Positions 42,754-49,825 of a DNA stretch of 64,000 nucleotides are shown piece by piece (position 1 is the stretch's first letter; each line of letters begins with the position of its first letter). A model generated the notes under the pieces. That model was not told where the DNA came from. It was given only the letters and a program-made list of their open reading frames with translations, and ran no database searches. A program made the position numbers and the translations under genes. Origin of the DNA: Nanobdellota archaeon (GTDB lineage Archaea; Nanobdellota; Nanobdellia; CSSed11-243R1); the NCBI GenBank assembly GCA_021163365.1, contig JAGGWW010000006.1, positions 4,123 to 68,122 of the forward strand, read 5' to 3'.

Positions 42754-43377
42754 GGCGTCCTGTTAAGTCAGGCAACGAGCGAGACCCTCGCCACTAGTTG
42801 CTATTTCCTATCTTCGGATGGGAAAGCACACTAGTGGGACTGCCTGCGTAAGCAGGAGGAAGGTGAGGGCGACGTCAGGTCAGTATGCCCCGAATGCCCT
42901 GGGCTACACGCGGGCTGCAATGCCTCAGACAATGAGATGCAACGCCGAAAGGCGAAGCAAATCTCCTAAACTGAGGCTCAGTTCGGATCGAGGGTTGGGA
43001 CTCACCCTCGTGAAGACGGAATCCCTAGTAACCGCGTTTCAGCATGGCGCGGTGAATACGTCCCTGCTCCTTGCACTCACCGCCCGTCATACCATTCGAG
43101 TTGGGTGGGGATGAGGCTTCCCCTTTTGTTAGATCTTCGGATCTGGCAAAAGAGGAAGTCGAATCCTTGCTCAGCGAGAGGGGTAAAGTCGTCACAAGGT
43201 AGCCGTAGGGGAACCTGCGGCTGGATCACCTCCTTTTTTAATTAAAAGGGTGAGGCAAGGAAGAAATTCCTTGTGCACAACCTAACACGAGTTGTTGCCT
43301 TCCTACAAACCTTTCTCAAAAAGCGTGCTGAAAATTTTCTTAAAATTTAAATACAAGCATCAACTTCCCACAAATAT

Positions 43378-43899
43378 ATGCAATTTAGAAATATTCTTGA
43401 CAAAATTGGATACATCAAAGAAAAGATTAATCTTAAAGAATTTGTAACTCTGTTTGTCATTGTTTTAATCCCAGAAATAATGCGGCACATAGTTTATTAT
43501 CTTGCCCAATTGAAAACAAATTCTATTGATTTCATTGCAAGCTTTGAAACAAGAACAATTTATTCTGCCAGCTTTCCAATTGCAGGAATATTCGAAGAAA
43601 TTTTAATTGGTTTAGTATACATCACATTGTGGTTCAAATTCAAGAAGTTGAGATTTTTAACGTATGCTTGGATTGCTGATGTTGCTTTTGATTTCATAAG
43701 TGTGATTTCATTTTTGCTAATAGGTGCAACACCATTGCAACTTTTAGGATTGCCACTAAAAATCAGATTCCTTTTAAGAGAAATAGTATTCTTCTACTTA
43801 ATCACTGGTCCGCTTTTAATGAAATACAAAATCGATGTAAAGAAGTTTGCAATTGGAACAACTGCATTAGGAATTCTTACAATACTTCTTTCAGTATAA
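43378..43899 (+). CDS. hypothetical integral membrane protein
   Basis: 173 aa, multiple TM helices. Lies between 16S and tRNA-Ala/23S. Confidence 0.4.
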   Translation: MQFRNILDKIGYIKEKINLKEFVTLFVIVLIPEIMRHIVYYLAQLKTNSIDFIASFETRTIYSASFPIAGIFEEILIGLVYITLWFKFKKLRFLTYAWIADVAFDFISVISFLLIGATPLQLLGLPLKIRFLLREIVFFYLITGPLLMKYKIDVKKFAIGTTALGILTILLSV

Positions 43900-43937
43900 A
43901 CGAAATATTTATAAATAACTACTGATTAGTAGTAACT

Positions 43938-46784: not shown

Positions 46785-46790
46785 TTTTGG

Positions 46791-47042
46791 GTGATTAAGT
46801 TGGATGATTATGTTAATCCTGAAATTCTAAAAAGAACTGAAAAGAATATTGATTATTCTCAAAAAGAATTATTAGCTGAAATATACGAACTTGCTTCAGA
46901 AGTTCGCGAGCTAAGAACAGCTCTTTCAGAATTATATCAAGTTGTATTAAACAGAGTTATAGATGAATTAGAAGAACTTGAGCCAGAAGATGAAGAAATT
47001 GTGTTTCCAGAAATTCCAAATCGTAATATTTATAAACTTTAA
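46791..47042 (+). CDS. small acidic hypothetical protein in tRNA-Ala/23S spacer
   Basis: 83-aa ORF with AT-rich composition like the coding genome. Could be a real gene or a chance ORF in the spacer. Confidence 0.25.
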   Translation: MIKLDDYVNPEILKRTEKNIDYSQKELLAEIYELASEVRELRTALSELYQVVLNRVIDELEELEPEDEEIVFPEIPNRNIYKL

Positions 47043-49825
47043 AATTTCTCTTAAACAAAGGCTGATGATTTATGATAATAAAATAGTGCCTTGAGCACCA
47101 ATGGTTTTTTCTTGTGAGTCAGCCTTTTATGTGTGCTTCCTGATCATACGATCTGGAAGCAAAAGGCATCCTCTTAACATGTTCAGCATGTTAATGATGC
47201 CGTGCATAGGGGAGCACCAGAATAGGCACTACGCTGCCAGGTGGATGGCTCGGCTCAGAAGCTGATGAAGGGCGTGGCAAGCTGCGATAAGCCTGGGGTA
47301 GCCGCACGCAGGCTAAGATCCCAGGATTCCCGAATGAGACTTCTTGGCATGCAGTAATGCATGTCACTCGGGTTGGTGATGAGCTAACCCGAGGAGGAAC
47401 TCCGCGAATTGAAACATCTTAGTAGCGGAAGGAAAAGAAATCAATTGAGATGCCGTTAGTAGGGGCGACCGAAAGCGGCATAGGGCAAACTGAACCATAT
47501 ATCGCAAGATATATGGGATGTGGTGTTTGGGAGCTGCGTATGCCAACTTCAAGGTGAAGCTGAACTCTGCTGGAAAGCAGGGCCATAGAGGGTGATAGCC
47601 CCGTAAGCGTAAGCCAAGAAGTTGGCGCAGTTTCCAGAGTACGCGGGGTTGAGATTCTCCGCGGAAATTGGGGGGCAATAACCTCCAACCCTAAATACTC
47701 TCTGAGACCGATAGCGAATTAGTACCGTGAGGGAACGCTGAAAAGTATCCAGAAATGGAGGTGAAAAGAACCTGAAACCTGGCAGCTACGGTATGCTGCG
47801 GCTCAAAAGGCTACTTCCTGAGCGAAGCTGTCGAAAGGCAGTTTTAGCAAAGGAAGTAGTTCCAGGGTTGCAGCGTTCCTTTCGGATAAAGAGGCAGGGA
47901 GTTTGTCTCAGTGGCGAGGCTAAGCTCAATTAAGAGCGGAGCCAAAGCGAAAGCAAAATGCGCGCAATCAGGGTTCTGATGAGGCGCTGCGTACGAAAGT
48001 GCGCGTAGTCACTGGGACAAGACCCGAAACCGCACGATCTACGCCTGGCTAGGACGAAATGAGGGGTTTCTCCCTCATGGAGGTCCGTAGGGGTGCTGCC
48101 TTTCAAAGCGCTCCCATGAGCTGGGTGTAGGGGTAAAAGGCCAATCATGTGCGGTGATAGCTGGTTCCTCCCGAAATGAGTCTCAGCTCAGCCCTACCAG
48201 AGCTTGCTAAGGGGGTAGAGCACTGATTGCGTATGCAGGGGTCGAGAGGCCTCGGTACGCAGTCAAACTCCGAATACCTTAGCAGCTAAGAAGGTAGGAG
48301 TGGGGGCACTGGGGTAAGCTCGGTGTCCAAGAGCGGAACAACGCAGACTGGAGTTAAGGTCCCAAAATGCTGGCTAAGTGATTTCGAACTTTGTCACCAG
48401 CCACAGACAGCCGGGAGGTAGGCTTAGAAGTAGCCATCCTTTAAAAAGTGTGTAACAGCTTACCGGTCGAGGCTGTTGGCGGGGAAAATGGACGGGTCTT
48501 AAGCCAGCTACCGATACTCCAGACCAGGATCCTTTGGATCCTGTGTGGTAGGGAGGCGTGTCGCATGGGCAGAAGCTGGTTCGTAAGGACCAGTGGACCG
48601 TGCGATAATGAGAATCCTGCCGGTAGTAGTAGCCTAGATGGGTGAGAATCCCATCCGCCTTAAGAGCCAGGGTTCCTCGGCAATGCTTCGTCAACCGAGG
48701 GTTAGTCGGTCCTAACCCATGTGGTAATTCCAACATGGGGAAAGGGAAGCAGGTTAATATTCCTGCACCACCTGGATACGTTCGGCAACGAAGGCTTGCC
48801 CAGTGACGCTTGGGGATAGGCAGAGCAGCACCGTCGTGCTGTTTAACAGGGATAAGTCCGGGGAGTTCTGTAATGGAGAGATCCGGACTAAACCTGGAAT
48901 AGCTGGCGTTTGCCAGTTCTGCTGATTCCTCGAGCCCGTGAAAAGCTGGGCAAGAAGGAGTCCAGGTGTCCGTACCGAGAACCGGGACAGGTGTCTCGGG
49001 CTTAGAAGGCTAAGGCGTGTAGGGATAAGTCAGTCAAGGGAAATCGGCAAATTAGCCCCGTAACTTCGGGAGAAGGGGTGCCTGCGACAGTGATTCGATG
49101 AGAATTGTTGTCGCAGGTCGCAGTGACTAGGGGGGCTGGACTGTTTAACAAAAACATAGCTGGTTGCTAATCCGAAAGGATTTGTACAACCGGCGACGCC
49201 TGCCCAGTGCCGGTATCTGAAACCCTGGTTCAACAGGGCTAAGGACCGGTAAACGGCGGAGGTAACTGTAACCTTCTTAAGCAAGCGCAATGCCTTGCCA
49301 TTTAAATGATGGCTTTGCGAACGGCGTAACTAGGTCCCCACTGTCCCTGACTGACACCCTATGAACACACTATTCTGGTGCAAAGGCCAGAGACTCCCAT
49401 TGGGACGATAAGACCCCAGGAGCTTTACTACAGCCAGTACTTGCGTTTCAGGTTTTGGTGTATAGCGTAGGCAGGAGACGTCGAAGCACCCACGCTAGTG
49501 GGTGTGGAGTCGCCAATGTAACACTGCCCACCTGGATCTGGAGCGCTAACTTCAGGGAAAACCTGAAGGACAGGTATTGGTGGGTAGTTTGGCTGGGGTG
49601 GCACGCCCGCGATAAGGTATCACGGGTGCCCTAAGGTCGGCTCATCCGGGTCAGAAATCCGGAGAAGAGCGTAAGGGCAAAAGCCGGCCTGACTGTGTGT
49701 CAGACAGAAAGACACGCAGGGGCGAAAGCCGGGCCTAACGAACCACAGTGCCCTTTTATTGAGGGCCTGTGATGACCGAAAAGCTACCCTGGGGGTAACA
49801 GAGTTGTCGCGGACGAGAGCTCATA

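Follow-up and report, generated by a model that had tools for sequence, protein, structure and literature searches.

How can an archaeon's 16S and 23S rRNA genes lie almost 4 kb apart, with protein genes in the gap, and still keep the order, the strand, and the intervening tRNA-Ala gene of the canonical 16S-tRNAAla-23S operon? This question is raised by a 64-kb stretch of DNA, referred to here as the window, from the metagenome-assembled genome (MAG) of a DPANN "Nanoarchaeota archaeon" from a deep-sea hydrothermal vent. A preliminary description of the window had set two readings side by side, namely insertion of genes into an ancestral operon and uncoupled transcription of the rRNA genes. Our results support the two as sides of one history, the second of them through conserved promoter modules that point to separate transcription. 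We put at about three in four the probability that the locus is an anciently dissolved rRNA operon, which would have been opened in place and would now consist of three separate transcription units.

The 16S rRNA gene (41586..43234, plus strand; Rfam archaeal small-subunit model, 1455 bits) and the 23S rRNA gene (47217..50361, plus strand; Rfam archaeal large-subunit model, 2765 bits) are separated by 3982 nt. The order of the locus is 16S, a membrane protein gene (mem173), orphan-435, a phosphoesterase gene, an HD-domain gene, tRNA-Ala, an open reading frame (ORF) of 83 codons (ORF83), and 23S, and every feature between the two rRNA genes is on the plus strand except the convergent HD gene. 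The protein genes that separate 16S from tRNA-Ala, put at some 3.4 kb in the preliminary description, span 3436 nt, and ORF calls together with Pfam matches agree with its account of them as a membrane protein, a 435-aa helical protein, a calcineurin-like phosphoesterase, and a convergent HD phosphohydrolase. The spacer between tRNA-Ala and 23S is 432 nt long and does hold the 83-aa ORF that had been noticed there. The G+C content of the whole window is 34%, compared with 53-55% for the rRNA genes; high G+C in rRNA and low G+C in the genome is the usual pattern in thermophiles.

For comparison, we used relatives from deep-sea hydrothermal metagenomes, namely AUK188 (JAGGYW01), WALP01, WALO01, JALTFL01, JAJRVP01, and two contigs from the Joint Genome Institute (JGI), with matching ENA re-assemblies of WALP01 and WALO01 that are labelled REYS20. 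Individual loci are identified below by L numbers. The protein genes between 16S and tRNA-Ala are real genes, as seen in their Pfam domains, their orthologues, their ratios of nonsynonymous to synonymous substitution (dN/dS, 0.06-0.29), and their codon usage, with scores for the intervening genes (0.41-0.75) within the range of true genes. The first of them, mem173 (43378..43899, plus strand), encodes a multi-pass membrane protein of 173 aa that is all-helical in an AlphaFold2 model of high confidence (predicted local distance difference test [pLDDT], 90.9). Orthologues in the relatives are 57-84% identical (dN/dS 0.11), and the gene lies downstream of 16S in every relative with a long enough contig, directly so except in L019 and L020. 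The protein had no matches in Pfam, NCBIfam, or PHROG, its confident model had no fold match in PDB, and the whole family amounts to only ~21 clusters among 5.8 billion proteins, and peptide patterns from mem173 drew no match in a metagenome scan.

The two genes with recognizable domains follow at the far end of the interval. The calcineurin-like metallophosphoesterase (45269..46021, plus strand, 250 aa; Pfam Metallophos_2, 1.1e-9) has orthologues in the same position in L019 and L011 (47% and 42% identity, respectively; dN/dS 0.29). The HD-domain phosphohydrolase (46004..46633, minus strand, 209 aa; Pfam HD, 6.5e-11), convergent with the genes upstream, has orthologues of 74-88% identity in the same position and a dN/dS of 0.06. 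Between mem173 and the phosphoesterase gene lies orphan-435 (43938..45245, plus strand), which encodes an all-helical protein of 435 aa with a gene-like codon score of 0.516. This gene is lineage specific: in L019 and L011 the stretch from mem173 to the phosphoesterase gene lacks it, and among 5.8 billion proteins it matches only itself, a hypothetical protein with the locus tag J7K22_00595. Except for a helical hairpin at the C terminus, its single-sequence AlphaFold2 model is of poor quality (pLDDT 51.5). Orphan-435 and ORF83 are the only lineage-specific pieces of the window locus.

The comparison with related genomes that the preliminary description had proposed shows the same split layout in five related lineages. 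In L004 (AUK188), 16S is followed by mem173, the HD gene (minus strand), tRNA-Ala, 246 nt, and then 23S, with a 16S-23S gap of 1723 nt. L001 and L010, which share one layout, have 16S, mem173, the HD gene (minus strand), a NifX-like gene, a tRNA-Ala with two introns, a HAD hydrolase gene, a CTP transferase gene, a 315-aa ORF on the minus strand, and 23S; the gap in L001 is 4758 nt, and its 16S is 93% identical to that of the window. L012 has the L001-type layout as far as tRNA-Ala, where contig coverage stops. In L019, with a 16S of 91% identity, 16S is followed by an ORF call of 141 aa (minus strand) and copies of a repeat, and then by mem173 (846 nt downstream of 16S), the phosphoesterase gene, the HD gene (minus strand), and the contig end. 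The most distant lineage of the set, L020, is 83% identical to the window in the 3' part of its 16S and has the order 16S, nucleotidyltransferase, HEPN, methyltransferase, mem173, tRNA-Ala (two introns), a phosphoesterase-like gene, and 23S, with a gap of 4350 nt. L011, a 2.5-kb contig, carries the mem173, phosphoesterase, and HD (minus strand) genes and reaches no rRNA gene. The nucleotidyltransferase/HEPN pair of L020 (878-1766), which is toxin-antitoxin-like, indicates that accessory genes settle in the 16S-23S interval.

Across these genomes, the order and strand of 16S, tRNA-Ala, and 23S are invariant and mem173 is always found in the interval, while the other content turns over. The order 16S, tRNA-Ala, 23S on one strand is complete in the window, L004, L001, and L020, and can be followed for 16S and tRNA-Ala in L012; in the four genomes having both rRNA genes on one contig, the gap is 1.7-4.8 kb. 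The window's subgroup probably inherited the phosphoesterase gene from its ancestor, with loss of the gene from L004, L001, and L012. Retention of the ancestral order, with protein genes occupying the intervals, fits insertion in place better than translocation, and the split is old rather than recent, since it is common to genomes with 16S identities of 91-93% (whole gene) or 83% (3' part). Two further searches did not extend this set. Homologues of the HD protein (62%, L007/L008) and of mem173 (51-58%, L021/L022) lie in unrelated contexts, so the synteny stops short of them, and six loci (L013-L018) recovered in a metagenome scan with a 19-mer of the 23S leader had no rRNA similarity and were chance matches. 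The distant mem173 homologues (L021 8312-10510, L022 7729-10444) follow genes for a PIG-L deacetylase and a GT28-type glycosyltransferase, neighbors that hint at an involvement of the protein in making glycolipids or the cell envelope.

The evidence for separate transcription comes from the upstream regions. A search for promoters ahead of 41300 and 46650, as had been suggested in the preliminary description, located TATA boxes at 41276-41283 and 46638-46645, and a third at 47029-47036. The first and third are parts of the same module, ATTTATAAA-N5-AAATTTCT, which lies at 41275..41296 (plus strand), ~310 nt upstream of mature 16S, and again at 47028..47049 (plus strand), ~190 nt upstream of mature 23S. 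The predicted start sites are near 41302-41308 and 47055-47062, respectively. These are the only two exact copies in 64 kb, and there are still only two when two mismatches are allowed (chance expectation, 0.6). In the relatives, the module is kept upstream of 16S in L001/L010 and, with one mismatch, in L019, and upstream of 23S in L004, L001/L010, and L020; copies are confined to these 16S and 23S upstream regions, bar one in L020. Alignment of the region upstream of 23S from four genomes is not possible until ~9 nt before the TATA box, from where conservation extends through the whole leader, and conservation upstream of 16S likewise starts sharply at the module. Given these conserved modules, 16S, tRNA-Ala, and 23S probably have separate promoters. 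The exceptional copy in L020 (3482-3503; ATTTATAAATACACAAATTCCT, one mismatch) is directly 3' of tRNA-Ala, with 200 nt of AT-rich sequence and the phosphoesterase-like gene downstream, and could represent either a promoter put to new use or a relic.

The tRNA-Ala(UGC) gene (46671..46784, plus strand; Rfam, 59.7 bits, and alignment), followed by TTTT, has an anticodon and a G3:U70 pair that establish its identity in the Rfam alignment and the sequence. At position 37/38 it has an intron of ~42 nt (46707-46748, ±1), which the preliminary description had missed and on account of which ARAGORN labels the gene as tRNA-Arg. ARAGORN was unreliable for these genomes in general, reporting zero tRNAs in the relatives, and the tRNA-Ala genes of L001, L012, and L020 were found only with a hand-made pattern. 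The 5' end of the tRNA is preceded, at 26-33 nt, by a TATA box (46638..46645, plus strand), and the box TTTATAAATA occurs at this same distance in the window, L004, and L001. The claim that tRNA-Ala still sits just upstream of 23S therefore stands as far as position is concerned; co-transcription of the two probably does not follow, as a separate promoter-like module for 23S lies downstream of the tRNA. Two TATA-like boxes face in opposite directions in the 37 nt (46634-46670) that separate the start codon of the HD gene from tRNA-Ala: TTTATAAA would serve the tRNA, and TTTAAAT, on the opposite strand, lies ~25-31 nt ahead of the HD ATG. L004 has a similar layout. The tRNA 5' leader is predicted to be only a few nucleotides long; the genome has an RNase P RNA (53886-54183; Rfam archaeal model, 144.8 bits).

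A further candidate promoter is found ahead of mem173. The box TTTAAATA (43347..43354, plus strand) lies 24-31 nt upstream of the mem173 ATG, a spacing that would fit a leaderless mRNA. Its TTTAAA core is identical in four of four genomes, the last two bases vary, and the surrounding spacer cannot be aligned.

ORF83 (46791..47042, plus strand) runs into the 23S promoter module, with its final five codons and stop (N-R-N-I-Y-K-L-stop) overlapping the module as well as the conserved bases that immediately precede it. It matches only itself among 1.84 billion cluster representatives, has no family match in Pfam, NCBIfam, or PHROG, and has no counterpart in L004, L001, or L020. Its length is weak evidence, because an equally long open frame appears in 5.4% of spacer shuffles. 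The codon score of 0.745 per codon compares with a mean of 0.554 for true genes and tops all 37 out-of-frame control ORFs (maximum, 0.646). On balance, we lean toward regarding ORF83 as a real, young gene.

Each rRNA retains a processing stem of its own, and here the folding results agree with the earlier account of a long leader/trailer stem for each gene. The 16S 5' leader (41300..41585, plus strand), which is conserved and structured in the relatives, holds the 5' strand of the stem at 41538-41569; the 3' strand is in the trailer at 43275..43306 (plus strand), followed by a T-rich tract (43335-43341). The 23S 5' leader (47055..47216, plus strand) holds the 5' strand of an outer processing helix at 47195-47213, and the 3' strand of this 19-bp helix lies in the trailer at 50363..50381 (plus strand), again followed by a T-rich tract (50382-50394). 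The 16S fold has a minimum free energy of -45.9 kcal/mol (z = -10.07) and the 23S fold one of -49.8 kcal/mol (z = -10.06), and in neither case was any of 200 shuffles as stable. Compensatory changes are seen in both. The 16S inner helix reads TAGG/CCTA in the window, TTGG/CCAA in L019 (an A-U to U-A swap), and TAGA/TCTA in L001 (G-C to A-U), and the 23S outer helix reads GGGGA/TCCCC in the window and GGGAA/TTCCC in L004.

The splicing endonuclease acts on targets of the bulge-helix-bulge (BHB) type. The 16S stem of L001 and L019 comes close to a canonical BHB in these models: two 3-nt bulges flank 4 bp (AGUG/CACU), and one further base is unpaired. In the 23S stem, the 19-bp outer helix leads through a 5x3 internal loop into helix 1. 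The 23S 5' leader contains another conserved helix (plus strand), AGGCTGA at 47059-47065 with TCAGCCT at 47119-47125, that shows compensatory AGGTTGA/TCAACCT in L001. This helix (47059-47068, 47119-47125) is flanked by UGAUGA, which is box C-like, and by a GA-containing 3' side; it may be a K-turn or L7Ae site, or a place where a guide RNA docks.

Taken together, we propose that protein genes entered a 16S-tRNAAla-23S unit to one side of the tRNA or to both, leaving what would be three transcription units that keep the old order and strand in this vent DPANN clade. The 16S and 23S genes would each be driven by a copy of ATTTATAAA, 5 nt, AAATTTCT, which could give matched output without co-transcription, and tRNA-Ala would be transcribed from the separate TATA box that stands 26-33 nt ahead of its 5' end. 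Each pre-rRNA would be cut out at the stem that its own leader and trailer make, which for 16S is BHB-like. The intervening protein genes would use their own promoters, in the case of mem173 the conserved TTTAAA-type box and a leaderless mRNA.

Several points weigh against this proposal. Start sites, termination, and the lack of read-through all rest on inference from sequence. Archaeal terminators are merely T-rich tracts, and those at this locus are short, so that some read-through from the strong 16S promoter into mem173, orphan-435, and the phosphoesterase gene, which share its strand, is plausible. The 16S stem of the window carries an A.G mismatch in the 4-bp central helix, and the folded 23S stem yielded no canonical 3-4-3 BHB. 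The comparison comprises only about six related lineages, with several contigs ending within the locus, and a linked operon that could polarise the history did not turn up in any of the available lineages.

The alternative that survives best is that the locus is still one operon, with a long precursor running from the 16S promoter into 23S and internal TATA boxes that are minor or serve mRNAs only. Every element but HD is on one strand and in the ancestral order, and the 16S trailer is followed by short T-tracts only, as such a precursor would have it. Against this, the 23S module is identical to that of 16S and has a sharp upstream limit of conservation in four genomes, the interval spans 1.7-4.8 kb with content that is not conserved, and the stem of each rRNA is built from its own flanks. 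Read-through from 16S would also be antisense to the convergent HD gene, whose dN/dS is 0.06. We consider a single operon unlikely.

Dissolution in place of an old operon is also to be set against the recent, genome-specific insertion of a cassette, such as a mobile element, into a canonical 16S-tRNAAla-23S operon. Orphan-435 and ORF83 are absent from all relatives, which indicates that these two were added recently. The split itself, with mem173 and either HD or the phosphoesterase, is common to lineages with 16S identities of 83-93%, there were zero PHROG matches, and the element scan picked up no repeats flanking the inserted genes, so a recent cassette as the source of the split seems very improbable. 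Least probable is a MAG contig that is chimeric at the rRNA genes, with a true distance other than 4 kb: metagenomic rRNA regions are often misassembled (a caveat also made in PMC8997704), but the 23S/ORF83/tRNA/HD/phosphoesterase junctions recur in two other assemblies, L005 (JGI) and L006 (ENA), the 16S/mem173 junction recurs in L001, L002, L003, L010, L004, and L012, from different samples and studies, and L019, too, has mem173 downstream of 16S, 846 nt off with another ORF call between.

Unlinked rRNA genes are documented as strongly prevalent in DPANN and Asgard (Juttner and Ferreira-Cerca 2022, PMC8997704), and the arrangement is therefore of a known kind. The 16S-23S distances in the window (3982 nt) and in L004, L001, and L020 (1723, 4758, and 4350 nt) exceed the 1500 bp above which rRNA genes are counted as unlinked (Brewer et al. 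2020, bioRxiv 10.1101/705046). Most unlinked pairs in that work are >6 kb apart, with a mean of ~410 kb; our loci resemble them in having a distance above 1500 bp and a DPANN host and differ in that the genes are 1.7-4.8 kb apart, on one strand, and in the old order, with tRNA-Ala still between. Unlinking has been suggested to be ancestral within such groups, with degeneration of the processing stems named as a consequence (PMC8997704), whereas both stems are intact here. A 2026 survey of 208 complete Nanobdellota genomes gives rRNA gene counts and does not resolve operon arrangement. Next to 23S is also where tRNA-Ala lies in an unlinked Asgard genome (PMC8997704). Unlike in Candidatus Prometheoarchaeum syntrophicum, which is an Asgard archaeon with rRNA loci covered in the same review, tRNA-Ala is not tied to 23S in the present lineages: it has its own TATA box, and it is separated from 23S by three genes in L001 and by one in L020.

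More complete dispersal is known in other archaea. In Nanoarchaeum equitans, 16S, 23S, and 5S are transcribed separately and scattered round the chromosome. To our knowledge, N. equitans has no RNase P RNA, in contrast to the genome studied here. Thermoplasma acidophilum likewise has dispersed, separately transcribed rRNA genes (Tu and Zillig 1982, cited in PMC8997704). Separate transcription, which we predict for our locus, would be common to all three; unlike in Thermoplasma-type dispersal, the genes here are neighbors, ~4 kb apart, on one strand and in ancestral order. With the canonical euryarchaeal 16S-tRNAAla-23S(-5S) operon, the locus shares order, orientation, a tRNA-Ala(UGC) between the rRNA genes, and one stem per rRNA, and it differs in having protein genes in the spacers, a putative second rRNA promoter, a putative tRNA promoter, and 5S elsewhere. 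With promoter-like modules inside it (46638, 47028) and those protein genes, the locus is not a canonical operon with a single promoter and gene-free spacers. What is added here to the known forms is a short-range class (1.7-4.8 kb) with kept order and a floating tRNA-Ala, intact stems, and a duplicated promoter module.

The lack of a 5S gene after 23S, stated in the preliminary description, extends to the whole window, in which there was no match at the Rfam gathering score and none at E <= 0.5; L001, L004, L005, and L010 also had none at the gathering score. A 5S gene hidden in a GC-rich island was ruled out, as all such islands are tRNA, rRNA, or RNase P RNA. Beyond 23S, the first gene (50405-51298, minus strand) encodes an AbrB/MazE-type domain and corresponds to the opposite-strand regulator that had been described there.

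A second feature of these genomes is a hairpin element of 35-40 nt, approximately CCTTTCTT-loop-AAGAAAGC-N6-GAAAGAAGG, that is common to many of their tRNA introns. At least six tRNA genes of the window have two introns each, in the D-loop, at 37/38 in the anticodon loop, or in the T-loop. They stand out as GC-rich islands at 13800-13982, 17982-18160, 37731-37917, 38611-38765, 40016-40176, and 40364-40515; ARAGORN misses all six, and Rfam misses them or detects them in part. Read by eye, the anticodons are tentatively Pro GGG, Asp GUC, Asn GUU, a questionable UAU, Glu UUC, and Leu UAA. Copies of the element in the window (13820-13852, 13907-13941, 40457-40489, 41437-41476, 42709-42743, 49829-49862, 49868-49902 on the minus strand, and 49971-50003) lie in tRNA introns at varied positions, within 16S and 23S, and in the 16S leader. 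The relatives have copies in L004 (6780-6957, 9888-9920, and 11203-11235), L001 (9340-9454 and 11279-11309), L019 (six copies in 3390-9293), and L020 (587-621, 3325-3357, and 7514-7546), whose sites also include 16S trailers, rRNA spacers, and intergenic DNA; an nhmmer search found none in the more distant L007, L021, and L022. The element looks like a mobile mini-intron or a family resembling miniature inverted-repeat transposable elements. Transposition of tRNA introns has reportedly been seen in Thermoproteales and would be comparable to this spread. We rejected the element as the mediator of the gene insertions at the rRNA locus, there being no copies at the borders of orphan-435 or ORF83.

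Insertions are also present in both rRNA genes. Relative to L001 and to the Rfam model, 16S has two (42500-42542 and 42708-42752, plus strand). The first, of 43 nt, lies between GGCUGAA and ACUUAAAGGAAU, at about Escherichia coli position 908, is absent from L001, and does not belong to the hairpin-element family. Its site is that of the universal primers 906F/926R, and it is probably a hairpin-only intron that would block standard amplicon primers. Position ~908 is a known locus of archaeal 16S introns (PMC4496867). In the 3' domain of 23S there are two insertions (49822-49908 and 49972-50015, plus strand) relative to L001, which has neither; the first consists of two element copies in inverted orientation, and in L004 a further copy follows the position equivalent to 50005.

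A wider picture can be sketched tentatively, and as a whole we give it somewhat less than even odds: an rRNA operon that dissolves stepwise without moving, with promoter duplication keeping the stoichiometry, accompanied by a mobile family of BHB-type mini-introns in DPANN. Genes would have come and gone to either side of tRNA-Ala, with 16S and 23S holding copies of one module, and the hairpin element would have spread through tRNA genes (D-, anticodon-, and T-loop introns), both rRNA genes, and the rRNA spacers.

For practical surveys, methods based on 16S-internal transcribed spacer-23S amplicons will fail on these organisms, one 16S insertion falls in the universal 906-927 primer site, and most of their tRNAs are missed by standard tRNA finders. 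For the history of the rRNA operon, unlinked genes are usually scored only as present or absent, and here six related lineages display an in-between state, with neighbors in the old order, intact stems, matching promoters, and changing guest genes. The route of unlinking, and the way in which 16S:23S balance is maintained after it, thereby become testable with metatranscriptomes from the same vents.

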